51,868 nt of DNA from a virus (lineage: Duplodnaviria > Caudoviricetes). The stretch is taken from positions 1-51,868 of the IMG/VR virus record IMGVR_UViG_3300009345_000002; one strand, written 5' to 3'. Both the position numbers and the translations under genes were made by a program. Below, piece after piece: positions 6,364 through 29,240 of the stretch; positions within the stretch are counted from its first letter, which is position 1; each line of letters opens with the position of its first letter. Below the pieces are notes generated by a model that did not search any database, was not told the DNA's origin, and was given only the letters and a program-made list of their open reading frames with translations.

Positions 6364-6562
6364 AGTAAAATTTAGAAGTTTAGGCAAAGATGTTGATATT
6401 GAAATTTCAGATGAAACATTTAAAAATGCCCAAAGGTTAAAATGTCGTAATATGTCAGCTGAAACAGAGACTTATCTTATTCTTTTATTTGATAGAGATG
6501 ACGAGGGAATTTTAGTTTTAGAAAAAAATTGTAAAAAAGTGCTTGACAAAAAGAGTAAATAG
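6356..6562 (+). CDS. hypothetical protein
   Basis: GAGGAG RBS, overlap with upstream stop. Confidence 0.6.
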   Translation: MYKVKFRSLGKDVDIEISDETFKNAQRLKCRNMSAETETYLILLFDRDDEGILVLEKNCKKVLDKKSK

Positions 6563-6579
6563 TTATATAATATAACTAT
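6543..6579 (+). promoter_or_regulatory. consensus sigma70 promoter with palindrome over -10
   Basis: TTGACA(6543)-17-TATAAT(6566); ATAGTTATAT-A-ATATAACTAT. Confidence 0.85.
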
Positions 6580-6606
6580 AAACAAAACTAAACAAAGGAA
6601 AATAAA

Positions 6607-7161
6607 ATGAAAATGGATAAAATAGCAAATAGTGGTAATGATGAATATTATACACCACTTTATGCAATAAAACCTATAGTTAAATATTTAAAAAAAGGGA
6701 GTACAGTTTGGTGTCCTTTTGATACAGATGATAGTCTTTATGTTAAATACTTAAAAGAAAATGGATTTAAAGTTTTAAATTCTCATATTGAAGATGGTAT
6801 TGACTTTTTTAATTATATAAAAGATTTTTCACCTATATGTGATTATATTATATCAAACCCACCATATAGTATTAAAACAGAAGTTCTTCAAGCTCTGTTT
6901 GATAATAATAAGCCATTTGCTATGTTAGTCGGTGTAGTTGGTATATTTGAAAGCCAAAAGAGATTTGATATGTTTAAATTAAATAAATTTGAAATAATGT
7001 ATTTTAATAGGAGAGTTGGGTATATGAATGATTACACTTCTGGAAAATGTGCATTAAGTCCTCCATTTTCTAGTGTATATGTATGCAATAATATATTACC
7101 AAGCCAGATAGTATTTGAATCAATAAATAAAAAAGAAATATTAATTAATAATGGAGAATAA
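6607..7161 (+). CDS. phage DNA N6-adenine methyltransferase
   Basis: DEYYTP, VWCPFD and catalytic IISNPPY motifs. Confidence 0.75.
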   Translation: MKMDKIANSGNDEYYTPLYAIKPIVKYLKKGSTVWCPFDTDDSLYVKYLKENGFKVLNSHIEDGIDFFNYIKDFSPICDYIISNPPYSIKTEVLQALFDNNKPFAMLVGVVGIFESQKRFDMFKLNKFEIMYFNRRVGYMNDYTSGKCALSPPFSSVYVCNNILPSQIVFESINKKEILINNGE

Positions 7162-15249: not shown

Positions 15250-15278
15250 TTGAGTTAGTATTATTATTATAGTATAAT
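15250..15278 (+). promoter_or_regulatory. promoter for candidate sRNA-A
   Basis: TTGAGT(15250)-17-TATAAT(15273). Confidence 0.6.
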
Positions 15279-15284
15279 AATAAA

Positions 15285-15387
15285 TGTTGCAAGAGGTATT
15301 TCTTTCACTTTCTTAATATCTCTTGTGATTATTCCTTATAATTAAGTTATAGTAAAAAAGGCAGAATTAATTTTTTGTCTTTTTTTT
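15285..15387 (+). ncRNA. candidate small RNA A (~100 nt)
   Basis: Own promoter, long hairpin with pyrimidine loop, TTATTCCTTAT segment, intrinsic terminator, no RBS-led ORF. Confidence 0.45.
15354..15387 (+). terminator. intrinsic terminator
   Basis: AAAAAAGGCAGAA-TTAAT-TTTTTGTCTTTTTTTT. Confidence 0.65.
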
Positions 15388-15446
15388 ATTGTTTTTACTT
15401 GACACCTGTTAGATTAAGTGTTATATTATACACATACTAAACAAAA
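15381..15446 (+). promoter_or_regulatory. duplicated 66-bp promoter cassette, copy 1
   Basis: TTGACA(15399)-17-TATATT(15422); 5 mismatches to 22214-22279. Confidence 0.85.
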
Positions 15447-15474
15447 ACATTAAACAAAATAAAGGAAAATAAGA

Positions 15475-16905
15475 ATGTCTAAAGATATTATTGTTCTTGA
15501 TCAAAATAGAAATCTTGCCGACTTATATCAAACAGATAACGGTATTGAAGATATTTTATCACAATTGGAAAATCAAGCTAGATCTATGGTTTTTGACTTA
15601 ACAACAGATACAGGTAAAAAAGAATGTATTTCTTATGCCTATAACATTGCTAAATCAAAAACGGCATTAGTTAAGGCTGGTAAATCACAAACAGAAGATG
15701 CTAGAGCATTTATTAAAACTGTAAATTCTCAAACAAAAGAAGTTGAAGAAAGACTTGATGCATTAAGAGATGAAGTAAGAAGACCAATTACTGAACTTGA
15801 AAACAAAGAGAAAGAAAGAAAAGCTATTTTAGATAAAGCTCTTTCTGATATGTCTGACTTTGTTCCAGCTATTGGTATCCAGCTTACATTAGAAGAAATT
15901 GAGCAGCGTTTAAATGGATTAAATAAAATTCATGAGCAAACAGATTGGCAAGAGTATAAAATGAAAGCACAAGCTGATTTTGAGAGACATACTGCTGCAT
16001 TAAACTCTCTTAAAACTGCTGCTAATGCCATTGCAGAGCTTAAAGCAAAAAAAGAGGCAGAAGAAAAAGCTGAAAGAGAACGCCAAGAGAAAGAGCGCAT
16101 TGCTGCTGCTGAAAAGGCTGCTAAAGAAAAAGCTGAAAGAGAGGCTGCTGAGAAAATTGCTAAGGCAGAGGCTGAAAAGAAAAAAGCAGAAGAAGAGGCT
16201 AAGGCTGCACAGTTAAAAATTGAAGAAAATGCTAAAAAAGAACAGCAAAGACTAGAAAAAATTAAAGAAGATAAAAGCAAAGCTGATAATATGATTGCAG
16301 AACTTGACCTTATTGATTTTAGTAAAGCTGATACATTGGAAGAGGCAGAAAAGAATTTTGTTCTAGCAACGGAGTATAGAAGTAAGGCTATGGATCTTGA
16401 TACTAGTGTTTATAAAGAGGCATGTGTTGTGTTTAAAGATTATCATGAGCAATCAAGAAAAGTTTTAGATACTCTAACTCAAAAAAGAAAAGAAGAGTTA
16501 CAGATATCTTATAAAAAAATCGCAGATGAAACAATTGAAAATATCAATAAATTAATGAATTTTGATTATGATTCTGTAACAGTTTCTGAGCTTAAAACAA
16601 TATCTATTAAAATTGAAAATAGTGTTAAAGAGTTCTTTAATGACCATGGTAAGCCAGAATATAGCATTGGTATTACAGGTCTACAAATGAAACTTGATGA
16701 TTGTAAGAAACAACTTGAAAAACTTATCTCTTCTAAAAAAGATGAGGCTGCTAAACAAGCTAATGAAGATCATTTGACTGCTAAAAAAAGAGAAACAGCT
16801 CAATCTTTAAGAAATATTGATAAAACTATAACTGCTGACCAATTAAAAACAATTGTAGAGGCTCTATTTAATAATGAAGTTAAAAATGTAAGGATTGTAT
16901 TATAA
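15475..16905 (+). CDS. long coiled-coil phage protein (TolA-like misannotated family)
   Basis: ARSMVFDLTTDTGKKECISYAYNIAKSKTAL...RLDALRDEVRRP N-terminus; EKA-rich helix. Confidence 0.7.
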   Translation: MSKDIIVLDQNRNLADLYQTDNGIEDILSQLENQARSMVFDLTTDTGKKECISYAYNIAKSKTALVKAGKSQTEDARAFIKTVNSQTKEVEERLDALRDEVRRPITELENKEKERKAILDKALSDMSDFVPAIGIQLTLEEIEQRLNGLNKIHEQTDWQEYKMKAQADFERHTAALNSLKTAANAIAELKAKKEAEEKAERERQEKERIAAAEKAAKEKAEREAAEKIAKAEAEKKKAEEEAKAAQLKIEENAKKEQQRLEKIKEDKSKADNMIAELDLIDFSKADTLEEAEKNFVLATEYRSKAMDLDTSVYKEACVVFKDYHEQSRKVLDTLTQKRKEELQISYKKIADETIENINKLMNFDYDSVTVSELKTISIKIENSVKEFFNDHGKPEYSIGITGLQMKLDDCKKQLEKLISSKKDEAAKQANEDHLTAKKRETAQSLRNIDKTITADQLKTIVEALFNNEVKNVRIVL

Positions 16906-17087
16906 TGGCTAAAGTTACATATATTAAAAATGGTGAAAAGATTATTCTTGAAACAACCGAAGAAAAAGAGGCAATTAGTGTTTTTGCAACAATAATTGTT
17001 AGACATGAACATAATGTTATTAAAAAAGTAAGTGAAGATGATATTATGAAATTATTGGAGAATATGGATGGCACAACAAGAAACTAA
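16905..17087 (+). CDS. hypothetical protein
   Basis: TAATG coupling. Confidence 0.55.
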   Translation: MAKVTYIKNGEKIILETTEEKEAISVFATIIVRHEHNVIKKVSEDDIMKLLENMDGTTRN

Positions 17088-17484
17088 TATATCTCATAAA
17101 ACAGAGCTTGCAGCATCAAAATTAGGTTTTGCAATGCACAGAAATAATACAGGTGTGTTTTATGCGATTAAAGATCATGGATTCAAAAGAAATCAAGCTT
17201 TTGTTAATCTTTTAAATAAATTCTTTAGAAGAGTTCAAGCTGGATTAGGGAAAGGAACGTCAGATTTAATTGGTTGGCGTACTGTTGAAATAACTCCTGA
17301 TATGGTAGGTAAGCGTATTGCAATTTTTGCTGCGCTTGAGATTAAAACAGATAAAGGACGAGCAAGCCCAGAGCAGATTAACTTTGTAAAACAAGTTAGA
17401 GCTGAGGGTGGAATTGCAGAGTTTGTGAAAGGAGATGAGGGAGTTGAAGATCTGGTTACAAAATATCAAGATTCTAATGTTTAA
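17068..17484 (+). CDS. VRR-NUC domain nuclease (resolvase-like)
   Basis: RNNTG, GLGKGTSDLIGW, ALEIKT..GRASPEQINF..GGIA. Confidence 0.88.
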   Translation: MAQQETNISHKTELAASKLGFAMHRNNTGVFYAIKDHGFKRNQAFVNLLNKFFRRVQAGLGKGTSDLIGWRTVEITPDMVGKRIAIFAALEIKTDKGRASPEQINFVKQVRAEGGIAEFVKGDEGVEDLVTKYQDSNV

Positions 17485-17659
17485 AAGACAAATTACTTCT
17501 AAACAATTAGCAGAAGAAATGGGGATTAGCAGAACTTATGCAAGTTCTCTAATAAATGGAAAAGAAAAAATAACAGATAAAAGATTTCAACAAATTGCTG
17601 AAATTTTAGACTCTACAGTAGATCAAATAAAACATGAAAGGATAGAAATACATGATTAA
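17477..17659 (+). CDS. XRE-family HTH regulator (start at or upstream of 17477)
   Basis: ITSKQLAEEMGISRTYASSLING...QIAEIL. Confidence 0.75.
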   Translation: MFKRQITSKQLAEEMGISRTYASSLINGKEKITDKRFQQIAEILDSTVDQIKHERIEIHD

Positions 17660-18464
17660 CAAAAAAACTTTTCAATTAAAGTATAAAGAGGCATTAAAAC
17701 TACAAAAAAATCTATGTGATGCATCTAGTTTTGACCAACTAAGAAATGGTGTTATTATTAGGATTGGCACAGATGATTTACTTACTCTTTATGCTACAGA
17801 TGGCCAGGTAATGGGTCGTTTAAGAAAAGAAAAAGACGAAAACCAAGCAGCAATACCATTTGCAGATATGGAAATAGCTTTTGCTGTTGATATTAAGCCT
17901 CTTGAAAAACTTACTAAATATATTGATGAAAAAGAAGATATTCTTTGCACATATGAAGAAAGCGAAGAGGCTGATGAAAATGAAAATAGAGAATGTTTTG
18001 TAACTTTCCATATGAATAGCACTAAAGAAATTATCAAACTTAGAGCTAAGCAAGTGAAAGAAGATATTTTAGAAAAAATTGATAACTATTTAAATGAAGA
18101 TAACTATACATCAGATTTTGAAATATCAAGAATCATAACAAATACTAAAAAAATGAGTAAAGTGGCATTTAATGAAAGTATTATGTTCCAAGTTAATAAA
18201 AATCTTGGTGAGCCTAGATATAACGAAGAGGGTGTGCAAATCGGAGAAGAAACACCTATATTCTTAATCAAAACAAGAGATAAAGAGTATACTGGAGTTA
18301 TTCTTGCTAAACATGATAAAATCGGTGAAGATAATCCACCTGAGGAAGAAAAATCTGAATCAAAGGATGAGCCTCTACCATTTGAAGATGATTTAGAAGA
18401 GCTTGTAACTAAGCAAGTTGAAAAAAATAAAATAGTTAAAAAAATATTAGCAAAGGATGAGTAA
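17652..18464 (+). CDS. divergent DNA polymerase III beta-clamp-like protein
   Basis: LRNGVII...LYATDGQVMG resembles clamp ATDGHRL motif; located in replication module. Confidence 0.45.
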   Translation: MINKKTFQLKYKEALKLQKNLCDASSFDQLRNGVIIRIGTDDLLTLYATDGQVMGRLRKEKDENQAAIPFADMEIAFAVDIKPLEKLTKYIDEKEDILCTYEESEEADENENRECFVTFHMNSTKEIIKLRAKQVKEDILEKIDNYLNEDNYTSDFEISRIITNTKKMSKVAFNESIMFQVNKNLGEPRYNEEGVQIGEETPIFLIKTRDKEYTGVILAKHDKIGEDNPPEEEKSESKDEPLPFEDDLEELVTKQVEKNKIVKKILAKDE

Positions 18465-18684
18465 AATGTGTAAAATACAGGACTACTTAGACAAGCAAAA
18501 AGAATTTCTACTATTAGATAATGAGGACGTTATTTATGATTTAGATCTTATTTATCGTAAAAACGACCCATTTTGTAAAGTAGAAGTAAAGGTTACAGGA
18601 AGTTTAAACTCTTTTAACCTTTTAAGGTTACAACATATAATTAACAATGCAGAAGATATGCATGCAAATAAAGGAAATAAATAA
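18457..18684 (+). CDS. hypothetical protein
   Basis: ORF overlapping upstream stop. Confidence 0.55.
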
Positions 18685-18685
18685 A

Positions 18686-19108
18686 ATGGCAAGTTCACTT
18701 AATAAGGTTCAAATTATAGGAAATTTAGGCAAAGATCCTGAGATTAGATACACAAACGATAATAAAGCAATCGCAAACCTAACAGTTGCAACAACTGAAA
18801 GCTGGAATTCAAAAGACGGTGACCGTCAAGATAAAACAGAATGGCACCGTTGTGTTGTCTTTGGTAAGCTTGCAGAGGTTATTGAAAAGTATCTTAAGAA
18901 AGGTTCTAAAGTTTACCTTGAGGGTAAACTACAAACTAGAAAATGGGAAGATAAAGACGGCCAAGAACGTTATACAACAGAGATTGTTCTTAATGGTTTT
19001 GGTAGTCAAATGGTAATGCTTGGAGCTAACGGTCAACCATTGAGTGATCAAGCTGGTGATCAAGTAGTATCAAACGAGCCAGATTTCGATAACGATATAC
19101 CCTTTTAA
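18686..19108 (+). CDS. ssb: single-stranded DNA-binding protein
   Basis: [43 protein letters not shown]-terminal DIPF. Confidence 0.97.
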
Positions 19109-19117
19109 GACATACCG

Positions 19118-19146
19118 TTGACAAACTAAATAAATTATGATATATT
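19118..19146 (+). promoter_or_regulatory. sigma70-type promoter
   Basis: TTGACA(19118)-17-TATATT(19141). Confidence 0.7.
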
Positions 19147-19176
19147 AAATTATGATTAAAAATAAGGAGATATATT

Positions 19177-19602
19177 ATGATTAAAAAAAAATGTACAAGA
19201 TGTGGTGAAACTAAAGATATTAGCCAATTTCAAAAGAGAGCAGCATCATCAGATGGATTAACTGCATCTTGTAAAAAATGCTTATCAGATTATGATAAAA
19301 AAAGAGCAAATAAACCACATAGAGTTAAAGCTAGAGAGAATTATTTAAAAACTGAGCAAGGCAAAGCAGCTCATAAAAGAGCAGTTGATAAATATAGAAA
19401 AAAAAATAATATTCAATATAGCTCTAACAATATTTTAAATAATGCTATTCGTGATGGTAAAATAAAAAAACCAACTAAATGTAGTATATGTGGTGTAGAA
19501 AATGTTTTAATTCATGGTCATCATGAAGATTATTCTAAGCCTTTAGAAGTTATTTGGTGTTGTGAGCAATGTCATGAAAAACTTCACGGTAGATTAAAAT
19601 AA
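19177..19602 (+). CDS. zinc-finger / HNH-like endonuclease
   Basis: KCTRCGETK...CKKC and CSICG..HGHHEDYSKPLEVIWCCEQCH. Confidence 0.8.
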   Translation: MIKKKCTRCGETKDISQFQKRAASSDGLTASCKKCLSDYDKKRANKPHRVKARENYLKTEQGKAAHKRAVDKYRKKNNIQYSSNNILNNAIRDGKIKKPTKCSICGVENVLIHGHHEDYSKPLEVIWCCEQCHEKLHGRLK

Positions 19603-19840
19603 TTTCCCTCTTGCAAAACCTGTAAAGGATAAGCACAGTTTTTAAGTATTTCTGTAAAAAATACTTAATTATTATGGAGGCCGCAGGTAGAATTTAATAC
19701 AATCTCACCGTAAGGCGAATGCTCAGTTCAAGTCTGAGGGTAACCGAGAAACCCATCGAGTGGGGCAATTGACTAGGATGTAAAACAGAGAAGAAATTGC
19801 AGCAGTTTTAGATATTTCTGCTAAATAAAAAAATATCTAC
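19601..19840 (+). ncRNA. structured intergenic RNA containing a tRNA-like domain (19676-19746) flanked by two pseudoknots
   Basis: T-arm CTCAG-TTCAAGT-CTGAG, partial acceptor stem GGAGGCC/GGTAACC, GNRA hairpins, PK2 19635-19668, PK3 19801-19839. Confidence 0.5.
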
Positions 19841-19878
19841 CTATAAATTAACTAAACAAAATAAAGGAAAAAAATAAT

Positions 19879-20391
19879 ATGACTGTAATAGCAGCAAGAA
19901 AAACTGATAAAGGTGTAGAAATTTCATGGGATAGTTTTTGTGGAGACACTTATAGAAAAGGAAAAGTAGATAGGCTTTCAAACCTAGATAAGAAAATTGA
20001 CGGTAATAACTTTAAGGCTCTTATTTGTGGTAGTGCAAGCTCTGGGAGTCTTTTAAAGTTTTTCTCAAAACACAATGGTATTGAAAGTGCAACCGAAATG
20101 GATATTCTTGGCTATTTAATTAGATTTAAAGAATGGTGCAGAGAAAAACTTCCAGCTCCAGATTTAAACATGGATATGATTATTATTATGGATGGTAAAA
20201 TATTTGAAGTAGATGCTGACCAGTTAGTTGTTTTTGAGAATACAGAATTTATTTCAATGGGTGCAGGTCAGCAATATGCAGCAACAGCATTGCATCTTGG
20301 TCATACAGCAGAAGATGCATGTAAAATTGCTTGCCAATTGTCTAATCATTGCTTAGAGCCTGTTAGAACTGAGGTAATAAAATATGACTAA
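19879..20391 (+). CDS. HslV/proteasome-like Ntn hydrolase
   Basis: N-terminal M-T-V-I-A (Thr1), ISWDS, SMGAGQQYA..AL, A...ACQLS pattern. Confidence 0.7.
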   Translation: MTVIAARKTDKGVEISWDSFCGDTYRKGKVDRLSNLDKKIDGNNFKALICGSASSGSLLKFFSKHNGIESATEMDILGYLIRFKEWCREKLPAPDLNMDMIIIMDGKIFEVDADQLVVFENTEFISMGAGQQYAATALHLGHTAEDACKIACQLSNHCLEPVRTEVIKYD

Positions 20392-20581
20392 TATATATAA
20401 GTTTGAAACTAACACTACTTATACACTTGAAGAAGTATTCAAGAGAAGTGGTCAGGAACTTAGAGATATATGGTTAGATAAACCAAAATATATAGTTAAA
20501 CATACAACAAACAGACACAAAAGAAGAGCTTTAAAAAAAATGAGGTTAAAGAATGAAACTAATAGAGTTAATAAAAACTGA
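20384..20581 (+). CDS. hypothetical protein
   Basis: GAGG RBS; basic NRHKRR tail. Confidence 0.55.
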   Translation: MTNIYKFETNTTYTLEEVFKRSGQELRDIWLDKPKYIVKHTTNRHKRRALKKMRLKNETNRVNKN

Positions 20582-20759
20582 TAAATTTGTTGATTTTAAA
20601 TTTAAAGAAGATCATGATGATCATTTATATTCTACAACAGGGAATGAAGTAAACCCTAGCGAAATATATAATCATGAATATGATTGCTATTTATCTTTAT
20701 CATCAATAATTGAAATGCTAGATAAAGAAGTAATAATTACAGGAGAGAATAATGACTAA
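20553..20759 (+). CDS. hypothetical protein
   Basis: ORF with GAGG RBS. Confidence 0.55.
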   Translation: MKLIELIKTDKFVDFKFKEDHDDHLYSTTGNEVNPSEIYNHEYDCYLSLSSIIEMLDKEVIITGENND

Positions 20760-20967
20760 TTTACTACTATGGATTTCTATAATATTAAATATAATATTTT
20801 TCAGAGCAATAATTATACATTCAAAAACATTAAAAGATATAAGAAAAATTGCAAATATGCAAATTAATATTTTATCATTAAAAGGCTGTATTGGATATAA
20901 TGAATTTGTAGAGGTTATGGATTCATTAAATAGAATAAGCGATAAAACAGAAAGGCATAAAAAATGA
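20752..20967 (+). CDS. small protein with N-terminal TM helix
   Basis: AGGAG RBS; hydrophobic N-terminus. Confidence 0.6.
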   Translation: MTNLLLWISIILNIIFFRAIIIHSKTLKDIRKIANMQINILSLKGCIGYNEFVEVMDSLNRISDKTERHKK

Positions 20968-21731
20968 CTAAAAAAACACAAACACCTATGACAGCAACAG
21001 CTTGTTTTGAGCTTATTAAAAAAAGTAAAAATGTTGCAGACCATAAATTTTTAAACGAGTTAGAAAAAACAACTAAGCCAATGCTTGATAAAGCTTTTGC
21101 AATTGGTCAAGAGTATAAAATAAGACAATTGTTATTTACATTGAAAGTTATTGCAAAAGAAAAAATATTAGTTGATTTAGGTTTTGATACATATGTTTAT
21201 AGAGATGATGTTGAGCAATTTGTTGATATGTATGCAGAAACAAATGATTCTAAACATATTGCAATCATTGAACTTGAAAAGTATGAAAGAGAAATACCTA
21301 ATCATATTGCCGAAGATGTGCTTAAATTAAAAGAATTAGACATTTTTGATAGATTTCTTATTGTTTATACAGATTACACTCAAAAGACAAAGAAACGAGT
21401 TGAAAAAGAGCGTGATCCTATTATATTTGGAATATTTGAAAGAGGTAAAGGTCATAATGTAGAAATTTACGATAAGATGTATTTTATTGGAGATTGGGAA
21501 GATGATTATTGCGACCTTACTCTTGAAAAAATGGTTGATGTAATGGCTAAGAAAAAGAATAAAGATATTAAACATAGCACTTTTGCTAGTACTGATATTA
21601 AATCTATTGAAAAATACATGGAAAAACTATCTGAAAGTAATGATAAGACTAATTTTAGAATAATTCCAAATAAAAAACCTACTGTATTTAAAAAAGTAAC
21701 AAGAGTGCTTAAATCATGGATAGGTCAATAG
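20964..21731 (+). CDS. conserved-looking hypothetical protein (DPIIFG...FIGDWEDDYCDLTL)
   Basis: 255-aa ORF with motif-like C-terminal half. Confidence 0.75.
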   Translation: MTKKTQTPMTATACFELIKKSKNVADHKFLNELEKTTKPMLDKAFAIGQEYKIRQLLFTLKVIAKEKILVDLGFDTYVYRDDVEQFVDMYAETNDSKHIAIIELEKYEREIPNHIAEDVLKLKELDIFDRFLIVYTDYTQKTKKRVEKERDPIIFGIFERGKGHNVEIYDKMYFIGDWEDDYCDLTLEKMVDVMAKKKNKDIKHSTFASTDIKSIEKYMEKLSESNDKTNFRIIPNKKPTVFKKVTRVLKSWIGQ

Positions 21732-22093
21732 ATTTAACACAAAACTTTCTCTTTTCAAAGAATCCTTTATCTGATATTTCAAATATGAGTTTTGGAATTA
21801 AGAGTAAATTATTTCAAAAATCTTTTTCTCTGGTGGAATTTATACATGGAAGTAATCCAGCAGATGAAAGACAAAGAGCTTGGAGTAATACAACTTTATT
21901 ACTTGGAGTAAATTCAAATAAAAATGAAGATTATCTAAAATATTGTGAAATTGAATCTGGTAATAGTTGTTTCTGCTGTGGGAAAAAAGAAAATATTTTT
22001 AAAAATGTTAGATTAGGATTTATTGGTATTTGTGGAGAATGTGATCGCAGAATGGAGAATATGGAATCAACAAAAAAATGGTTGCAATCCTAG
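21716..22093 (+). CDS. zinc-finger hypothetical protein
   Basis: CFCC...CGEC. Confidence 0.65.
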   Translation: MDRSIDLTQNFLFSKNPLSDISNMSFGIKSKLFQKSFSLVEFIHGSNPADERQRAWSNTTLLLGVNSNKNEDYLKYCEIESGNSCFCCGKKENIFKNVRLGFIGICGECDRRMENMESTKKWLQS

Positions 22094-22110
22094 TATTTTT
22101 GTGGTATATT
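22082..22110 (+). promoter_or_regulatory. promoter for candidate sRNA-B
   Basis: TTGCAA(22082)-17-TATATT(22105), TG extended -10. Confidence 0.65.
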
Positions 22111-22115
22111 TATAA

Positions 22116-22212
22116 ATGAGGTTATCAACACCTCGTTCAAAATTAAAAAAATATATTTTTTTTTATTTTGTTTATTTGTTTAGGGAAAAGTAGGTTTTTA
22201 GCCTGCTTTTTC
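22116..22212 (+). ncRNA. candidate small RNA B (~95 nt), antisense to CA-rich mRNA leaders
   Basis: 5' hairpin GAGGT/ACCTC, GU-rich core TTTTATTTTGTTTATTTGTTTAGG, terminator hairpin, no RBS-led ORF. Confidence 0.55.
22185..22212 (+). terminator. intrinsic terminator
   Basis: AAAAGTAGGT-TTTTA-GCCTGCTTTT followed by T-rich tail. Confidence 0.65.
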
Positions 22213-22213
22213 A

Positions 22214-22279
22214 TTTTTTTATTGTTTTTACTTGACACCTGTCAGATAAGGTGCTATATTATACATATACTAAACAAAA
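22214..22279 (+). promoter_or_regulatory. duplicated 66-bp promoter cassette, copy 2
   Basis: TTGACA(22232)-17-TATATT(22255); CACCT-N8-AGGTG inverted repeat in spacer. Confidence 0.85.
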
Positions 22280-22294
22280 CAAGGAACAAAATAA

Positions 22295-22663
22295 ATGAAA
22301 AGAATGCAAAAATATTTAACAATCATTGTAGATAAAAATGAAAGCTTTGAGGAGTGGGCTGAAAAGTTTAAAATTGATTCTGATTCCGAACTATATCAAG
22401 ACTTAGATAAGTGCTATATGGAAAGCGAGAATGAGATTCAATATGCTCCAGTATTTAACTTTGATGATGATGAATTTGCAAGACATGGTATGGATGTTGT
22501 AGACGAATATGAAGAAGATACAAATTCTTATATTACAACAAGATCAGGATGTAAAGATGGTATTGCAGAATCTATTTATAATGAATATGTTGGAGAAACA
22601 AAACTAGACCCAATTACATCTGCTTATATTTACGAGTTAATAAAAGATGAGGTATATTTCTAA
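22295..22663 (+). CDS. acidic hypothetical protein
   Basis: First ORF after promoter; D/E-rich. Confidence 0.7.
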   Translation: MKRMQKYLTIIVDKNESFEEWAEKFKIDSDSELYQDLDKCYMESENEIQYAPVFNFDDDEFARHGMDVVDEYEEDTNSYITTRSGCKDGIAESIYNEYVGETKLDPITSAYIYELIKDEVYF

Positions 22664-22899
22664 TGATTACAGATAATAAAAATACATTTTTTGTAAGGTA
22701 CGAATGCCAAAAATGTGGCCATGATAAATATTTCTTTACCCCCAGGGGTTTCTGTTGGCCTGCTGCTGTGATAGGACTTATTATTTTTCCACCATTAGCA
22801 CTTATAGGGTTTATAGGAATGAACACACCAGTAAAAAACTGCAAAGAATGTGGCTCAAGAAAGGTCAAGAGAATAAAGATTGGAGAAAGTGATGAATAG
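22663..22899 (+). CDS. small Zn-ribbon membrane protein (CxxC-TM-CxxC)
   Basis: CQKC, hydrophobic stretch, CKEC. Confidence 0.65.
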   Translation: MITDNKNTFFVRYECQKCGHDKYFFTPRGFCWPAAVIGLIIFPPLALIGFIGMNTPVKNCKECGSRKVKRIKIGESDE

Positions 22900-23023
22900 C
22901 TTAATAGACTGGTATATAGATCAATATAATGCTTTTGTTGAACTATGGATGCTACCATCGCACAAAGCTAGTATAAACAAACCAAACTACCCACAAATAG
23001 TACCAAATGATAATTTTAAATAA
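22892..23023 (+). CDS. small hypothetical protein (43 aa, not in track)
   Basis: GGAGA RBS, fills gap. Confidence 0.4.
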   Translation: MNSLIDWYIDQYNAFVELWMLPSHKASINKPNYPQIVPNDNFK

Positions 23024-23036
23024 GGAGAAAAAATAA

Positions 23037-23204
23037 ATGGAAAAGTTTTATGAAATAATGAAAAAGTCGCCTAAAGTAGTTCAAGTACTTTTAGTCGCTT
23101 TAGGCAGTATCGGTTTGTATGTTGTATATAGATTTAGATATTTAGTTTTAATTATTGCTATTGCAGCAATTGTAATTTATATGAGCATGCAAGGGGGTAT
23201 GTAA
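23037..23204 (+). CDS. small membrane protein (55 aa, not in track)
   Basis: AAGGAG RBS, two hydrophobic segments, TAATG coupling to the MTase. Confidence 0.6.
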   Translation: MEKFYEIMKKSPKVVQVLLVALGSIGLYVVYRFRYLVLIIAIAAIVIYMSMQGGM

Positions 23205-24400
23205 TGCAAATATTAAGTTTATTTAATGGTATGTCTGTTGCCAGTCAAGCACTAAAAGAAATTAATGTAAAGCCAGAAAAAACATATGTTTCTGATATTG
23301 ACAAATGGGCCAATGATAATACAAGATATAATCATCCTGATAGTATCCATGTTGGTGATGTAACAAAATGGAGAGAGTGGAATATAGATTGGTCTAAAAT
23401 TGATTTAGTTGTAGCAGGCTCACCTTGCCAAGGTTTTAGTTTTGCAGGTAAGCAATTAGCTTTTGATGACCCAAGATCTGCTTTGTTCTTTGAGTTCTTA
23501 CAAATTCTTAATTATGTTAAGCAGCACAACCCAGATGTTAAATTTATGCTTGAGAATGTTAAGATGAAAAAAGAATTTCTTGATACAATTACCAATCTAC
23601 TAAAAGCTGATCCTATTTTGATCAATAGTGCTTTAGTAACTGCCCAAAACAGGCAAAGATACTATTGGACTAAAGAAGATATAGCACAGCCAGAAGATCT
23701 AGGAATTATGTTAAAAGATATCTTACAAGAAGACAATGAAGTTGATAGTAAATATTTCTTATCAGAAGAACAAATCAACAAAATTGATTTTACTAATATA
23801 AATAAAACATTCAAGTCTGATGTTAAAGTTCTTGGTCATAGAAAAGGTTTCAGAAGAAATACTCAATGCTTTGATCCGACAGGAAAGACTGAATGTCTTG
23901 ACACATGCACAAGTGGTGGCAGACAGCCTCATGTATTAAAAATTAATAAAAAAGGTAAGATTAAGTCAAATCAGAATAAAGCATCTTGCTTAACTGGTGG
24001 TGGGCATAGTGGAGGAAACCATTCAGATATGGATATCATTGCTAAAGGAGTTGCTCAGAGAGGTAGATATAATGAAGAAATAGCTACATCTGATAAAGAT
24101 ATTCATCAGTTAAAATGTGATAGTGGTTATCAAGATAATAAAGTTGGAATTAAGAAATCACCAACATTAAGAGCAGGTAATAGTTTTGTTCTTGGTATGG
24201 ATGAAAGATTCTTTATTAGAAGACTAACACCTACTGAGTGTGAGAGGCTACAGGGGCTACCTGATGGATATACTAAGTATGGCAGAAAAGAAGATGGAAC
24301 TGTTTACGAAATCTCAGATACTCAAAGATATAAAATGCTTGGGAATGGATGGACTTTGCCAGTTATTAAACATATATTTAAACAAATATTAGGAGAATAA
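23204..24400 (+). CDS. dcm: DNA cytosine-5 methyltransferase
   Basis: LSLFNG, AGSPCQGFS, LENV, AQNRQRYYW, RRLTPTECERLQG, YKMLGNGW. Confidence 0.95.
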   Translation: MQILSLFNGMSVASQALKEINVKPEKTYVSDIDKWANDNTRYNHPDSIHVGDVTKWREWNIDWSKIDLVVAGSPCQGFSFAGKQLAFDDPRSALFFEFLQILNYVKQHNPDVKFMLENVKMKKEFLDTITNLLKADPILINSALVTAQNRQRYYWTKEDIAQPEDLGIMLKDILQEDNEVDSKYFLSEEQINKIDFTNINKTFKSDVKVLGHRKGFRRNTQCFDPTGKTECLDTCTSGGRQPHVLKINKKGKIKSNQNKASCLTGGGHSGGNHSDMDIIAKGVAQRGRYNEEIATSDKDIHQLKCDSGYQDNKVGIKKSPTLRAGNSFVLGMDERFFIRRLTPTECERLQGLPDGYTKYGRKEDGTVYEISDTQRYKMLGNGWTLPVIKHIFKQILGE

Positions 24401-24509
24401 GATGACACAGCAAGAGAGAATTAACTTAGTATTGGATTATTTAATTAACCAATGTGAAAAAAAATTAGCAGAAAAATCGCCTTATCTGCTTTATATATAG
24501 GAGAAAATT

Positions 24510-24644
24510 ATGGGACTATTTATTTTAGGGAGCATATTTGGTACTTTAATAGTATCGCCAATATTGCAAAGCTTATTAGTTAAATTAGATTTTTGGCTAG
24601 AAGATAGAGAAGATGAAAAACATGGGAGGCATGGAGACAGATGA
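24510..24644 (+). CDS. small membrane protein (44 aa, not in track)
   Basis: AGGAG RBS, hydrophobic N-terminus, ATGA overlap with next gene. Confidence 0.5.
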   Translation: MGLFILGSIFGTLIVSPILQSLLVKLDFWLEDREDEKHGRHGDR

Positions 24645-25057
24645 CTAAAACACTAGATGACTTTATTAATAATTTAGAATTATACCATTCTGAAATTGAA
24701 AGAATTGAAAAGGAAGTTGGCTTTAATGCTAGGAAAATGGAAGTTAAACGCGAGCATTTTGATAAAAAGCATGGGGCTGGGGCTTATAATATTTTTCATG
24801 ATTTGGTTCAGCTTGCTTATATGAAGAAAAAATATGATGCTGTTACAGAATCTTTAGAAAAACCTGTTGAGTTTAGCAATCATATCGTTGTAAATAACCT
24901 ACAGACAGCTATTCAGACTACTTTACAAGATGAAAAGATAGATCTATCACAAGCAATTAATGAAAGAGAAGAAAAGCTTGGTTATATGGTTAGACTTTAT
25001 AATGTTGATAATGCTGGCATGATAACACCAAACACATTACGATTAAAAAAAGTATAA
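24641..25057 (+). CDS. hypothetical protein
   Basis: GGAG RBS. Confidence 0.7.
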   Translation: MTKTLDDFINNLELYHSEIERIEKEVGFNARKMEVKREHFDKKHGAGAYNIFHDLVQLAYMKKKYDAVTESLEKPVEFSNHIVVNNLQTAIQTTLQDEKIDLSQAINEREEKLGYMVRLYNVDNAGMITPNTLRLKKV

Positions 25058-25115
25058 ATGTAATCCTGATAACTTTTTATCAATATTTAAAGATGATATA
25101 GAGAAAGAATAGAAT

Positions 25116-25240
25116 TGATATAATATATATAAATAAGACCCTGGGGGTGTCTTTAAGTACCCTCACTAGATTATGGATAAAATATCCACCGTAAAATTAC
25201 GCACTATACCTTTTAAGCACGTCCATAGGAGGACATAACG
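25116..25240 (+). promoter_or_regulatory. extended -10 promoter and structured 5' leader (pseudoknot PK4, SD-occluding hairpin)
   Basis: TGaTATAAT at 25116-25124; AAGAC-CCT-GGGGGT-GTCTT-TAAGT-ACCCTC; GTCC-ATAGGA-GGAC. Confidence 0.5.
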
Positions 25241-25546
25241 ATGTTAAACAGAAAAACTGTTAAACAGTTGAAACAAGAAATTGCAGATTTAAATACTCAA
25301 CGCGATATTCTTTTAGAAGACGGTGATGGAGTAGTGGTAAATCTCTGTAATGTTCATACCCTTAATATTCAAATTCAAAAACGCGAAAGCATGATTAAGG
25401 ATATTAAAGATATGTTAATTAAACAGGAGCGTTTGCTTGAATACGATATTCAGCTTACTAAAGATAAGATTGATCTATTAACTGAATCAGTCATTGTCGG
25501 CGATAACTCCAAAGAGAACCAAAGACTAATTAAACTAAGAAATTAA
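25241..25546 (+). CDS. coiled-coil hypothetical protein (frame continues past TAA to 25639)
   Basis: AGGAGG RBS; heptad pattern. Confidence 0.7.
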   Translation: MLNRKTVKQLKQEIADLNTQRDILLEDGDGVVVNLCNVHTLNIQIQKRESMIKDIKDMLIKQERLLEYDIQLTKDKIDLLTESVIVGDNSKENQRLIKLRN

Positions 25547-25604
25547 ACCGTTGAAGAGTTAGGATTTTTAGAAGACGAACTTACTCTACTTAGGAGAGAG
25601 AAAA

Positions 25605-25805
25605 ATGAGTTTAAGCCATGTCTACCAACTCCAGCATGAGTTAAGAAGTGCAGAATCATATTTAAGATTTTGCAAGTCTCAACAAAGCAATCAATTATCC
25701 ATTGCAATAGCAGGTAAGGACAAAATAAATGAACAAGTCAAGAAAGCACAAAGGCAAGTATGGGAAATTAAGAAGGAGTTGGCAGTTGCTACAGAAGAAA
25801 CATAG
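25605..25805 (+). CDS. hypothetical protein
   Basis: AGGAG RBS; last + strand gene before terminator. Confidence 0.65.
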   Translation: MSLSHVYQLQHELRSAESYLRFCKSQQSNQLSIAIAGKDKINEQVKKAQRQVWEIKKELAVATEET

Positions 25806-25824
25806 AAAATGATATTTTACGATC

Positions 25825-25856
25825 AAAAAAGACCCATAATTACTATGGGTCTTTTT
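25825..25856. terminator. bidirectional intrinsic terminator between convergent arms
   Basis: AAAAAAGACCCATA-ATTAC-TATGGGTCTTTTT. Confidence 0.85.
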
Positions 25857-25894
25857 ATTTAAGTATGGTTATATCAAGCATGTGATGTTGATAC
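25825..25894 (-). ncRNA. candidate small RNA C (~70 nt), antisense to lysis-operon 5' end
   Basis: Minus-strand TTGACA(25928-25923)-17-TACATT(25905-25900); contains CTTGATATAACCAT; ends at terminator. Confidence 0.5.
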
Positions 25895-25928
25895 TTAATA
25901 ATGTATCACTAATTGACTAATCTGTCAA

Positions 25929-26234
25929 CTACTTCTTTTGCTTACTTGTTGGAGTTAAATAACCAGCAATACCAGTTGCAATTACAGTACCAATAGCTTG
26001 AGTAACACTAACTGTTGTTTCCACTCCTGCTGCAACATAAGCTGCTTGAACAATAGCTGTACCAAGTTCTGGGCTAATAGCAATACCAATAGACGAGCCA
26101 ATTGATAAAACAAGAGAAACCATTGAAGATTTTTCTTTAGCTCTATTAACAACAAAACTTTTACTGTTTTTTAAAGTAGGTCTGATTATATTTTTCTCAA
26201 CTACCTTACATAAGCTTTTTAATTTTTCTAACAT
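25929..26234 (-). CDS. putative holin / lysis membrane protein
   Basis: Basic N-terminus, hydrophobic helices, basic C-terminus, adjacent to endolysin. Confidence 0.55.
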   Translation of the reverse strand: MLEKLKSLCKVVEKNIIRPTLKNSKSFVVNRAKEKSSMVSLVLSIGSSIGIAISPELGTAIVQAAYVAAGVETTVSVTQAIGTVIATGIAGYLTPTSKQKK

Positions 26235-26253
26235 TTTTTTGTTCCTTTATTTT

Positions 26254-26616
26254 TTAATAACCGAATATTGTTTGATGCTCTCTGTCATCAATATGCACAA
26301 TATCTTTTCTTATTCCAACTGTAAGGCCCAATGCTATAGCAGTTGTTATAAATTTAATTCTTTGTTCTTGATTCCAATGAGACCAAGGAAAATCTACAGC
26401 TCTACCTAGCTTATGCATAGAATCCTCACTACCACCTATTTTTTTATTGAACTCTTCTGATCTCCAAGAAGAACTAGGAGATAATCCAAACCCAACAATA
26501 TGTCTTAAGAATCCTATTTTAGATAAGAACCCTTTATCCATATGCTCAAAAACATTAACCCTACCATAATCCATAGTGAACTCAGTAGGTTTGAAATATT
26601 TATCAAAATAATCCAT
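26254..26616 (-). CDS. peptidase M15A-family endolysin
   Basis: SSWRS..FN..IGG..DSMH.LGRAVD...VHIDDR zinc-peptidase motifs. Confidence 0.85.
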   Translation of the reverse strand: MDYFDKYFKPTEFTMDYGRVNVFEHMDKGFLSKIGFLRHIVGFGLSPSSSWRSEEFNKKIGGSEDSMHKLGRAVDFPWSHWNQEQRIKFITTAIALGLTVGIRKDIVHIDDREHQTIFGY

Positions 26617-26676
26617 ATATTTTTTTCCTTTCTTTGTTTGTAATATTATATATTATAACAGAAAAAAGCTAGTTTA

Positions 26677-27210
26677 TCAACCAGCCTTATTCATCATCTT
26701 TTCTAGTAGTAATAACTTACTCGTTATTCGCTCTTGTCTCGTCCTCAGTTGGTTGGATTCCTCCCTCAGAAGACCCATTTCCTTCTTTATCGAAAAAACC
26801 TCAGCATTTGTATTTGTTAGATCAGTTCTAAGACTTTCTCTTGTTCTAACAACCTCTTGGCTTAGGTTTTTGTTTTGTTCAGACATTATTTTAACCGTTG
26901 TTGATACTGTAGCTAATTGCTCCCTAACTTTAAAGTTCTGGTCTGACATCTTTTTATTCATATCAGATAACTCATCTTTTACTTCTAGCATTATATTTGC
27001 TAGTTCTATTTTAGTTTTTAACGGCTCTAACTCAGAGTTTGCTCTGTTATCGCTTGTAATTTTTTCTTGAGTTTTACTATTATTTGCTTGGTCTTTTATC
27101 TGCTCGTCATAAGATCTAAACTTATCAACAAGCAACCAACAAAATCCTAAAAATAAAGCCCCAACTATAAAGCCCTGTATACTATTTTTACTGTTTAAAT
27201 CAATTTGCAT
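26677..27210 (-). CDS. N-terminal TM + coiled-coil protein (lysis accessory, spanin/holin-like)
   Basis: One TM helix then long coiled coil; immediately upstream of endolysin. Confidence 0.55.
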   Translation of the reverse strand: MQIDLNSKNSIQGFIVGALFLGFCWLLVDKFRSYDEQIKDQANNSKTQEKITSDNRANSELEPLKTKIELANIMLEVKDELSDMNKKMSDQNFKVREQLATVSTTVKIMSEQNKNLSQEVVRTRESLRTDLTNTNAEVFSIKKEMGLLREESNQLRTRQERITSKLLLLEKMMNKAG

Positions 27211-27311
27211 AATAAACCTTTCTAATTAAGAGTAGGAAAGGGGCGAACCCCAAACCTAAACCTTAATATAACCATATTTACATAATACAACTAATTAGTA
27301 TAAATAGTCAA
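27211..27311 (-). promoter_or_regulatory. lysis-operon promoter and structured leader
   Basis: TTGACT(27311-27306)-18-TATTAT(27287-27282); leader starts ATGGTTATATTAAGG and has GGGG-TTCG-CCCC hairpin. Confidence 0.6.
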
Positions 27312-27312
27312 T

Positions 27313-27341
27313 AAAAAAGACACCTGTAAAGATGTCTTTTT
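27313..27341 (-). terminator. intrinsic terminator
   Basis: AAAAAGACATCT-TTAC-AGGTGTCTTTTTT on minus strand. Confidence 0.75.
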
Positions 27342-27344
27342 ATT

Positions 27345-27905
27345 TTATATCTCACTTTCATTCATTTCAAACCATGTATAAGCAACATGTATTCTCTGAG
27401 ACTTAGCATGAGTATTAGTTATTTTTAACACAAAGAATGAATCTGGATTATAAAGTCTAAATCCTAAATCAGAATTTATACCACCACTAGATTGACCAAC
27501 ATTACCAGCAGATGGTATAAAGTCTCTTTCCCTTATTGTGCCAGCTGTTGCTGGAGGGGTTGTAAGCTCATTAATTGCCATAGTAGCAACTGAGGAACTA
27601 AGCCTATTCTCATTAAACGATGGTATTGATGATCCTGTTGACAATCCTGTAGAATCCCATAATATTTCTATTTCAGCTCCTCCAGATTCTGTTTTAAATT
27701 GCCTTTGCTGTAGTGCAATTATTTTTCCACTAGACGTACTTGGCATTTGATATAAAACATACTTTACCTCGCCAGAGTTAAAGCTTTTATCATACTCTGC
27801 ATAAAACCTATGACCATCAAAAGTTTCTTTTTCAGATAACTCTGATGTATTTACTAAACCTGTCTTATTAGCCTTATGACCAAATATATTTGTAAAATCT
27901 CCCAT
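27345..27905 (-). CDS. hypothetical (likely virion, beta-rich) protein
   Basis: AGGAG RBS; late region. Confidence 0.7.
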   Translation of the reverse strand: MGDFTNIFGHKANKTGLVNTSELSEKETFDGHRFYAEYDKSFNSGEVKYVLYQMPSTSSGKIIALQQRQFKTESGGAEIEILWDSTGLSTGSSIPSFNENRLSSSVATMAINELTTPPATAGTIRERDFIPSAGNVGQSSGGINSDLGFRLYNPDSFFVLKITNTHAKSQRIHVAYTWFEMNESEI

Positions 27906-27914
27906 AACAAGCTC

Positions 27915-28241
27915 CTACTCTACATGAATAATATTATCTATTGCAACAGTTAAATTAGTTGCACCAGTATATTTTATTTTATATTTACAATTCATGCTCA
28001 TAGAAATATTTTGAATATGTTGAGCGCCATCTTTTACATCTATACCCTCAAGTAATGGATAGTAATTATCATTATCACCAATTATAGTAGCCAAGATATC
28101 AACAATTCCAGTATCACCATGAATCATAGTTAGTATTGGTCTTGAATCCAAATTTAAGGTTACGTCTTGTTGGAATGGTTTAGATTCACCATTTCCTGAT
28201 ATTCTTTGTATATCAATATCACTAGTATTTTTTAGTATCAT
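27915..28241 (-). CDS. hypothetical protein
   Basis: GAAAGG RBS; late region. Confidence 0.65.
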   Translation of the reverse strand: MILKNTSDIDIQRISGNGESKPFQQDVTLNLDSRPILTMIHGDTGIVDILATIIGDNDNYYPLLEGIDVKDGAQHIQNISMSMNCKYKIKYTGATNLTVAIDNIIHVE

Positions 28242-28305
28242 TTTATTAGCCTTTCATTATTTTAAACAAAACAATGATTGAATTAAGGTATATTAAAATA
28301 ATAAC

Positions 28306-28439
28306 ACAAAAGCAGCCCTATTACAATAGAGCTGCTATCTGCATTATACAGATGATTATATTAAGTATATTATTACTTATGGCTATTAAGGGAGAGAGCA
28401 AAACCTAAATCATGCACTCCCACACCTTAATACAATCAT
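28306..28439 (-). ncRNA. candidate small RNA / attenuator leader D (~130 nt)
   Basis: TTTACA(28472-28467)-17-TATATT(28449-28444); long 5' hairpin; terminator-like hairpin AGCAGCTCTAT/ATAGGGCTGCTTTTG at 28337-28307. Confidence 0.5.
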
Positions 28440-28458
28440 AAATAATATAACACCCATT

Positions 28459-29166
28459 TTAATCCTTGTAAACAGTTTTAAAGAAAATACCAGGTAAAAA
28501 TGATAAAAATCCTTTAAGTTTATATCTATACCCTAAAATATCCAATAAAGGTTTTTGAGATTTAACGCAATTTAACCTCATGTTTAATAATTCCGTATTG
28601 TAAGCTGTAGATTGTTTTAATCCACTTACAGCCTTTCCTGTTTTATTATTGGTACAATCAGTCCTAATTAACACATAATGCTTTTTAATATGGGTTAAAT
28701 CTAGCTCATGAGCAGCAATAACACCCTTTCCTTTATCTAATTTATAAACTTTACCTTTTATAATACTTGCCATTCCTGCAAAAGGACTTCCAAATAAACT
28801 GATTATATATTGTTTTAAATTCTGTGGCTTGTAAAATGCCAAATAAACATATTTACTATTATATCTATCACTCTTAAAATTATATCTTTTTAAAGCCTGA
28901 TAAATAGTAAAGTAAAAAAATACAAAATTAAGTATTAATATTGACATGCTAGAATTGGAATTAAGGTCAACTATGACATATAATATCTTATGAATTGCCA
29001 TGGATAATACGACACTGATTGCCTCATCTCTTGATGAACATATGGAGATTGTTAATAATGTAATGATTGTATAGAGGTCTTTATAATAAAAGAACTCAAT
29101 TGGTAGAATATCATAGCAGTTATAAATATAATAACCCATGATAAGAAATATATATAGTTTATTCAT
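28459..29166 (-). CDS. membrane protein with soluble C-terminal domain
   Basis: Several N-terminal TM segments; 235-aa ORF. Confidence 0.7.
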   Translation of the reverse strand: MNKLYIFLIMGYYIYNCYDILPIEFFYYKDLYTIITLLTISICSSRDEAISVVLSMAIHKILYVIVDLNSNSSMSILILNFVFFYFTIYQALKRYNFKSDRYNSKYVYLAFYKPQNLKQYIISLFGSPFAGMASIIKGKVYKLDKGKGVIAAHELDLTHIKKHYVLIRTDCTNNKTGKAVSGLKQSTAYNTELLNMRLNCVKSQKPLLDILGYRYKLKGFLSFLPGIFFKTVYKD

Positions 29167-29211
29167 AATAAAACACCTTTTTAATTAAAATTTTGATTAT
29201 ATTAAGGTGTT

Positions 29212-29239
29212 GGAGGGACTTTCACCCTCCTGTTTTTTT
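29212..29239 (+). terminator. terminator-like hairpin with U-tract on + strand (antisense to late operon)
   Basis: GGAGGG-ACTTTCA-CCCTCC-TGTTTTTTT. Confidence 0.55.
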
Positions 29240-29240
29240 A

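Follow-up and report, generated by a model that had tools for sequence, protein, structure and literature searches.

The 51,868-base record IMGVR_UViG_3300009345_000002 comes from a tailed phage and was analysed in its entirety; the whole record is the window, and all coordinates are window positions. Four short units in it, named A to D, had been proposed as small RNAs (sRNAs) of the phage. Unit B, a candidate sRNA of about 100 nt (22116-22217, + strand), has in our estimate an even chance of being a trans-acting antisense RNA that damps the early genes as a class through their ribosome-binding sites. Judged from the sequence, B is a well-supported candidate, C and D form a real motif module, and A is unsupported.

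Many genes on the + strand open with the CA-rich leader AAACAAAUAAACAAA or a variant of it, and six of them lie directly behind a consensus promoter. The seed of unit B (22154-22183, +) is the reverse complement of this early leader. A 16-mer of the leader occurs in sense orientation at 557 and 4634 and only once in antisense, within B (three matches against 0.04 expected). The unit comprises a 5' hairpin, a weak A/U hairpin, the exposed U/G-rich seed and an intrinsic terminator, and the 3' part of the seed is unpaired in the predicted fold. It is located 3' of genes 20964 and 21716. Its promoter-like site (22082-22110, +; TTGCAA-17-TG-TATATT, with an extended -10) overlaps the stop codon of gene 21716-22093.

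Cofolding of B with 86 leaders ranked those of genes 4662, 15475, 966, 6607, 2766, 22295, 19879, 575 and 50449 highest, with energies of -18.3 to -11.2 kcal/mol against a mean of -6.3 over the 86. These nine consist of eight CA-rich leaders and gene 2766. The best predicted target is the leader of gene 4662 (4621-4664, -18.3 kcal/mol). The other cofolded targets, like it on the + strand, are the leaders of gene 15475 (15433-15477), gene 966 (928-968), the methyltransferase gene 6607 (6579-6609), gene 22295, next downstream of B (22266-22297), the HslV-like gene 19879 (19845-19881), gene 575 (551-577, with 16 perfect pairs) and gene 50449 (50414-50451), together with the start region of gene 2766, which lies within an operon (2735-2768). 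A weaker target is predicted in the leader of the M15-peptidase endolysin on the - strand (26614-26646; -9.0 kcal/mol, rank 15 of 86). The predicted duplexes contain 17-30 pairs and often extend from the leader through the Shine-Dalgarno sequence to the AUG. At all 11 CA-rich-type leaders tested, the endolysin included, pairing with B is predicted to raise the cost of opening the ribosome-binding site by 2-8 kcal/mol.

Several controls indicate that this complementarity exceeds chance. The longest helix of B to any leader is 17 bp, or 21 bp with two G.U pairs, lengths reached by 0 and 1 of 300 shuffles, respectively. Helices of at least 12 bp are formed with 14 leaders, compared with 3.1 +- 2.2 in shuffled sequences and with no shuffle of 300 as good; 85 of the 86 leaders were scored in this count, the downstream neighbour of B being omitted. 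Shuffling of the linker only gave means of -8.0 and -8.9 against an observed -14.4 (0/200 and 0/150). The eight leaders of that comparison had been pre-selected for carrying the motif, and unbiased tests were added for that reason. Among 595 coding-strand tiles scored against B, the six best are gene starts and the seventh is intragenic. Leaders with a promoter score of at least 10/12 (14 of the 86) bind B with a median of -9.0 versus -4.9 (p 0.0005), a preference that units A, C and D do not share (p 0.29-0.81). Within the 20 A-richest leaders, the median B energy is -13.5 in the 11 that contain AAACAAA versus -7.1 in the nine that lack it. In a blind scan, with the same gene caller applied to all records, the B window emerged as the top intergenic 30-mer of the genome, matching 6 of 25 leaders at 14 bp or more and eight at 12 bp. 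The best windows of six whole phage records and six loci used as controls matched 0-4 leaders at 14 bp and at most six at 12 bp, and the highest of these control windows were poly-U tracts.

Other observations weigh against a regulatory RNA. The B duplexes are nearly all A-U, with one to three G-C pairs each, and B binding correlates with the A content of the leader (rho -0.64), which acts as a confounder. A poly-U tract in the control locus L019 pairs with 4 of 18 leaders at 14 bp, and at 12 bp three L019 windows and two windows of the control G001 reach six leaders versus the eight of B. The B promoter scores just 9/12, and the unit can also be read as a 25-codon frame starting at its first base. 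Some strong host-type promoters with CA-rich leaders are missed by B (19177, -5.8; 50190, -2.7).

These points bear on a rival explanation in which the U-rich stretch is non-regulatory, being either the A/U-rich 3' untranslated region (UTR) tail of the upstream operon, ahead of a terminator, or an inverted, decayed leader, and shut-off is performed by proteins that act on promoter palindromes. The low-scoring promoter that overlaps the upstream stop codon fits it, as does the pairing of poly-U tracts from other AT-rich phages (L019, G001) with A-rich leaders. Protein regulators are also at hand. One gene for a helix-turn-helix (HTH) protein lies at 6061-6363 (+; a weak match, below the Pfam cut-off) and another, of Cro/C1 type, at 17477-17659 (+; Pfam HTH_3, above the cut-off), and both are candidate transcription regulators. 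The palindrome TAGTTATA-N3-TATAACTA covers the -10 box at 532-550 and recurs exactly at 6560-6578 and 50395-50413, where it may be an operator or a shared promoter signature. A second candidate operator, the GACACCTGT box or CACCT-N8-AGGTG palindrome, lies in promoter 22232 (22234-22253) and in promoter 15399 (15401-15420), between the -35 and -10 boxes at 22236 and 15403; the GACACCTGT 9-mer is also found at 27319-27327 (three matches versus 0.11 expected). The HTH genes and promoter palindromes offer a candidate protein route to shut-off, one that the initial annotation had overlooked. No B-like unit stands 3' of the homologous gene in eight distant loci, a weak point given their identity of 28-35%. 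Against this explanation, the seed keeps the G/C-A/U register of the leader over 16-17 nt, which composition-matched shuffles do not, and the locus offers no fitting minus-strand promoter or gene start. Nine unrelated records have the early palindrome TAGTTATA-N3-TATAACTA at promoters as well; it could therefore be a promoter signature rather than an operator. Protein repression and B are in any case compatible with each other. This rival explanation is held to be rather unlikely. It is very improbable that B is instead a leaderless mRNA for a basic-then-hydrophobic peptide of 25 residues (22116-22193) whose hydrophobic part accounts for the U-rich stretch: the predicted transcript does begin with an AUG whose frame covers the seed, but the AUG is buried in a 7-bp hairpin, U-rich RNA yields Phe, Tyr, Val and Leu whatever the frame, and coding leaves the exact leader match unexplained.

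In the antisense model, B would be transcribed from its host-type promoter or released as a 3' piece of the upstream operon, and would then accumulate. Its U/G-rich seed would pair over the ribosome-binding sites of eight to ten early leaders. The effect would be a delayed shut-off in lytic growth or a standing repression in a plasmid-like prophage. The initial annotation had suggested that early shut-off is set by trans-acting RNA pairing; sequence statistics support this for B but not for A. It had also reasoned from host-type promoters and from the lack of a phage polymerase or sigma factor. None of the 82 proteins was recognised as an RNA polymerase or sigma factor, as it had stated, nor as an integrase, but its premise of RNA as the sole timing route is weak, given the two HTH genes and the promoter palindromes and boxes.

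Two side observations concern the surroundings and the 5' end of B. A cassette of 95 nt is duplicated at 15374-15468 and 22207-22301 (82% identical); it contains a terminator tail, a promoter with CACCT-N8-AGGTG and a CA-rich leader, and units A and B each lie directly upstream of one copy. The first loop of B (22123-22131, +) and the 5' end of C (25892-25885, -) have TATCAACA in common, possibly by chance.

The four units had been described as ORF-less, each with a promoter, hairpins and a terminator. Promoter matches, stable folds and terminators, the last partly in folded form, are present in all of A to D, but B, C and D hold short frames. The predicted fold of every unit is more stable than those of all 200 of its dinucleotide shuffles (z -4.7 to -5.9; B -5.9), an excess to which the terminator hairpin within each unit contributes. 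Terminators were called by the scanner in B (22184-22212) and D (28336-28311) only, while in A and C they appear in the predicted folds. Promoter-like matches are not enriched overall in this AT-rich region (102 versus 93.3 +- 9.9 in shuffles). The promoters of B, C and D overlap the last codons of upstream genes, so these units are also the 3' ends of those genes. As for the frames, the 25-codon frame of B occupies 22116-22193, C is overlapped by a frame of 43 codons, and D by one of 26 codons plus one of 44 codons on the opposite strand; all lack a Shine-Dalgarno sequence. Exact-sequence look-ups of four small frames of these units, a set outside which the 25-codon frame of B fell, found none (0/4) in the protein collection, and they are uninformative because the putative holin is absent from that collection too. 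The 44-codon frame antisense to D (28274-28408, +) has a hydrophobic C-terminal half and a leader-like stretch, TAAACAAAAC, ahead of it; no promoter was found for it, and it is among the sequences absent from the collection.

The initial annotation had also credited B, C and D with segments complementary to leaders, and their longest helices (17, 15 and 17 bp, respectively) do exceed those of shuffles. In C and D, the apparent targets are copies of one 15-nt motif, ATGRTTRWATYAAG, and the two units are likely a separate local module built on it. The motif occurs six times, always between genes and in both orientations, in the 3.4 kb from 25865 to 29207. The pattern was drawn up post hoc; leave-one-out profiles place every held-out copy at rank 1-3 genome-wide. 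Unit C (25894-25823, -) consists of a hairpin, an anti copy of the motif and a bidirectional terminator where the genome arms converge, behind a promoter-like site with an extended -10 (25928-25900, -; 10/12). It may be merely the 3' end of the lysis transcript. Unit D (28439-28303, -) has the motif at +1, an internal anti copy and the terminator at 28336-28311. Its promoter-like site, again with an extended -10, lies at 28472-28444 (-; 10/12), and the unit doubles as the 3' UTR of gene 28459-29166.

On the transcribed - strand, two copies are in sense orientation and four are anti copies. Both sense copies stand at a predicted +1. One is the 5' end of D (28417-28439, -), where the match extends to a 22-nt inverted repeat (20/22) of 29194-29215, and the other (27261-27275, -) begins the transcript of gene 26677-27210. 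The anti copies are found in C RNA (25865-25879, +), in the 3' half of D (28352-28366, +), where the copy is able to fold back on the D 5' end, in the leader of gene 27915-28241 (28274-28288, +), and in the leader of gene 28459-29166 (29167-29215, -). The copy in the 28241 leader forms the 5' arm of a hairpin covering the ribosome-binding site; that in the 29166 leader (29193-29207) pairs with the Shine-Dalgarno arm and overlaps the -10 box of a promoter-like site at 29225-29196. Positions 25864-25878 of C pair with 27262-27276 over 15 bp, a helix matched in 1 of 300 shuffles, or 3 of 300 with two G.U pairs. Positions 28422-28438 of D pair with 29194-29210 over 17 bp (0/300; 4/300 with two G.U), as part of the 22-nt inverted repeat that flanks gene 28459-29166.

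Among the explanations of this module, a DNA operator ranks first, with a probability somewhat short of even. The motif would be an asymmetric binding site for a phage or host protein, for example either HTH protein, that holds off the host-type promoters of 25.8-29.2 kb until late; C and D would amount to ordinary 3' ends that happen to contain promoters, and would be complementary to other segments only because the site occurs in both orientations. Five of the six copies lie between -17 and +29 of predicted starts, one of them over a -10 box. The motif is similar to a half-site of the palindrome at the early promoters. In promoter 27311, it occurs together with the GACACCTGT box and a degenerate palindrome. 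The genome has its two HTH genes, and the chance-level net binding energies of the RNAs also favour this explanation: that of C (-10.8) is equalled by 48 of 60 shuffled units and 17 of 53 shuffled leader sets, and that of D (-9.7) by 9 of 15 shuffles. A weak anti copy at 50202-50216, at the predicted start of the terminase operon, scores 8.2 versus 19-22 for the six copies, and would suit an operator as well. The strongest lysis promoter (26680-26652, endolysin), however, has no copy. The match between D and the 29166 leader extends to 22 nt, past the shared core, and takes in the anti-Shine-Dalgarno arm. Differences between copies fit partner-specific pairs: G at position 4 of the 27210 end lies opposite C in unit C, G at position 7 of D lies opposite C in the 28241 leader, and the remaining changes give G.U pairs. 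The sixth copy, in the middle of D, is positioned to fold back on the D 5' end.

An activating RNA switch, ranked slightly below the operator, is a tentative reading of the same motif. By pairing with the anti copies of the 29166 and 28241 leaders, the D and 27210 5' ends would expose the Shine-Dalgarno sequences hidden there, and the anti copy of D itself and unit C would act as sinks. The two leader copies are the 5' arms of hairpins over ribosome-binding sites that rank 7th (29166) and 2nd (28241) among the most occluded of the 86. With the D or 27210 5' end, the predicted opening cost falls from 9.3 to 2.4 at 29166 and from 7.0 to 4.0-4.6 at 28241. The energies of C and D, at the level of shuffled controls, count against such pairing, and of the units compared it is only B that surpasses its controls in energy; a chance-level net energy is, for its part, expected if pairing must displace hairpins. 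Two further results weigh against the switch. The promoter at 29225-29196, if used, starts the 29166 mRNA downstream of the lock, so that the binding site is already open, and pairing of the leader with D is minor in the fold of the whole 29166 mRNA (about two to three expected pairs).

For C and D, lysis timing by antisense pairing finds little support: the energies are no better than those of shuffled controls, which was the criterion named in the initial annotation itself, the matches are copies of one local motif that may be a DNA site, the predicted effect is activation, and the partner genes (27210, 29166 and 28241) exclude the endolysin and the putative holin and are not core lysis genes. 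Gene 27210 has a weak Rz-like match (E 1e-4). Gene 28459-29166 has a membrane N-terminal half and a C-terminal half with weak Vibrio phage homologues; there is also a lead, no more than that, towards a permuted papain-like fold. A role of C as repressor of gene 27210 was rejected, the predicted effect of C pairing being a slight opening of the site (4.1 to 2.5). It is possible that C could block a short leaderless frame at the 5' end of the 27210 mRNA. Both D (28439-28410, -) and the 27210 transcript (27275-27222, -) begin with an AUG at the predicted +1, opening leaderless frames of 9 and 17 codons, respectively. The latter frame terminates within reach of gene 27210, on its Shine-Dalgarno sequence, so that translation of the two could be coupled. 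At 29212-29240, a + strand terminator was called opposite to the genes; it might be the end point of a transcript antisense to the 29166 leader, and no promoter was identified for such an RNA. The ends of an invertase or insertion sequence (IS) are not favoured as the origin of the inverted repeats, as no recombinase match was obtained; gene 20964 matches a PHROG labelled transposase but without Pfam support.

Unit A (15285-15388, +) has a long hairpin with a pyrimidine loop, followed by a weak terminator, and a promoter-like site at 15250-15278 (+; 10/12). It has no target beyond chance, in line with the short matches first ascribed to it. Its longest helix, of 10 bp, is equalled by 300 of 300 shuffles, and the 15-bp helix allowed by two G.U pairs by 34 of 300. 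Its best leader, at -8.9 kcal/mol, is one among many similar values with no standout, and a general anti-Shine-Dalgarno role was rejected on this ground. The loop and the hairpin at 29212-29230, which immediately precedes the 29166 leader, could pair over 13 bp (three G.U). This is one among many short matches; a loop-hairpin contact is a type of interaction beyond scoring by cofolding.

Broader schemes fare less well. It is doubtful that the phage uses two layers made of RNA alone, with B as a GcvB-like master repressor of all early leaders and a lysis-side switchboard on the 15-nt motif, where the motif would serve as activator (the 5' ends of D and the 27210 mRNA), lock (the two leader hairpins) and sink (C and the 3' half of D), and mRNA 5' ends would activate neighbouring mRNAs. 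Still less probable is the full original model, with four discrete sRNAs in one network that times early shut-off and lysis by antisense pairing. All four units do have promoter-like sites and stable folds, B pairs with the endolysin leader too, and the loop of A can reach the hairpin mentioned above. A, however, has no target by either test. C and D bind no better than controls in energy, and the genes that they pair with have either an Rz-like match or no assigned function. No pairing between B and the C/D module stood out, which speaks against a single network.

Searches for relatives yielded the DNA of no close one. Viral scans with gene 20964 gave two distant loci only, those with the endolysin and with the major capsid protein gave no relatives, and an alignment of the 27345 family found four loci, none syntenic. 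A pattern of the B seed plus terminator had no match in the viral scan, nor had the pattern of promoters 15399 and 22232. The early promoter pattern was found in nine records, all unrelated, and the C/D motif at 22 loci, each with a single copy, 19 of them within long open frames and none with a protein match. A first metagenome scan returned no relatives and another seven distant loci of 28-35% identity without a B-like unit. A genome scan returned generic HTH matches only, and blastn against GenBank phages chance-level pieces only.

The window has a G+C content of about 31%. Sheath, baseplate, portal, terminase and M15-peptidase endolysin genes were recognised. The + strand carries replication genes and small genes lacking an assigned function, the - strand virion and lysis genes, and the two genome arms meet convergently at unit C. 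The nearest outside relatives of the sheath are only 29-30% identical, which makes the phage an orphan; Logan contigs encode proteins at least 90% identical to some of its own, among them products of genes beside B and beside C and the 27210 leader. The best matches point loosely to Proteobacteria as the host group. Arrays of 21-22-nt iteron-like repeats, mutually inverted, occupy each record end (9-201 and 51548-51740). Genes run in the same direction across the end junction, so the arrays are likely a replication origin broken by the assembly at a TA repeat; they would fit a plasmid-like prophage lifestyle too. A tRNA-like remnant lies at 19676-19745 (+), in the ORF-free stretch 19603-19878, 3' of the endonuclease gene 19177-19602. 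Its T-arm is clean (CTCAG-TTCAAGT-CTGAG) and its acceptor, D and anticodon arms are broken; it was not called by ARAGORN or Rfam and has a fold z of -0.1. The G+C-rich leader of gene 25241 (25134-25240, +) contains several hairpins and folds no better than shuffles (z -0.7). Over the whole window, ARAGORN called no tRNA at threshold, and Rfam gave five weak matches, all below the gathering scores and none to C4 or GcvB.

To our knowledge, early-gene shut-off in phages that lack a polymerase or sigma factor of their own is poorly explained beyond a few models. If the antisense model holds, one RNA of the phage, directed at a leader that its early genes have in common, would solve this problem at the RNA level, where T4 employs a nuclease; the value of the model is limited by the few target genes with assigned functions. 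Were the C/D module to work through RNA, it would offer an uncommon case of phage RNAs that activate genes of their own phage. DsrA and RprA act on rpoS as anti-antisense activators. The predicted pairing of D with the 5' arm of a leader hairpin would likewise free a Shine-Dalgarno sequence, whereas in this phage a single motif, repeated within 3.4 kb of the genome, would supply activator, targets and sinks alike.

Virulent phages produce many uncharacterised small RNAs, as the available part of a recent preprint describes (bioRxiv 2023.10.13.562163). Searches of an open-access library, judged by titles and abstract openings, turned up no phage RNA described as repressing the early leaders of its own phage as a class; a review table of 38 sRNAs without an assigned function and the tables of the preprints may bear on this. 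The action of B would resemble that of GcvB on ACA-rich enhancers and of c4 on the mRNA of its own phage. In the parts of the sources used here, c4 RNA of P1 and P7 (immI) pairs in trans with own-phage mRNA near the ribosome-binding site via exposed segments (PMC12197685; PMC8201110). B is modelled with a comparable exposed stretch that could pair with mRNA of its own phage at the ribosome-binding site, but c4 serves immunity by targeting a single mRNA, ant, from the operon to which it belongs, whereas B would reach eight to ten scattered leaders. B also has no Rfam C4 match, no antirepressor was recognised among the 82 proteins, and B follows two genes of no assigned function, not those of an immI-type operon. 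GcvB, according to the portion of the report consulted, uses one seed to silence ACA-containing translation enhancers just 5' of the Shine-Dalgarno sequence on many mRNAs (PMC3879156). The U/G-rich seed of B could likewise pair with ACA-rich elements that lie before the Shine-Dalgarno sequence in many mRNAs. GcvB, however, is chromosomal and acts on amino-acid transport genes, whereas B is phage-encoded, would face genes of its own phage and has no Rfam GcvB match.

SviR of the Vibrio cholerae satellite PLE is described, in the accessible text, as a trans-acting sRNA on several PLE and phage transcripts during infection, with sviR flanked by inverted repeats (bioRxiv 10.1101/2022.04.08.487710). 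It is satellite-encoded, directed against a helper phage and experimentally shown, whereas B is a predicted RNA. The T4 endoribonuclease RegB, in the available part of its description, inactivates early mRNAs class-wide at a shared motif in translation initiation regions (PMC3014915). RegB is a protein nuclease that cuts at GGAG, and B would reach the same end through base pairing. In Cluster K mycobacteriophages, the SAS motif precedes many non-structural genes and, in four genomes, has one inverted copy away from a gene start, as the part of the report used here relates (PMC3203893). Many sense copies with a single inverted copy are also the pattern of the leaders and B. The SAS sequence and host group are different, and the inverted SAS copy is not read as an sRNA in that part of the report, whereas the inverted copy here is housed in a unit of promoter, hairpin and terminator. 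The antisense model for B supplies a testable reading of the lone inverted SAS copies in these mycobacteriophages.

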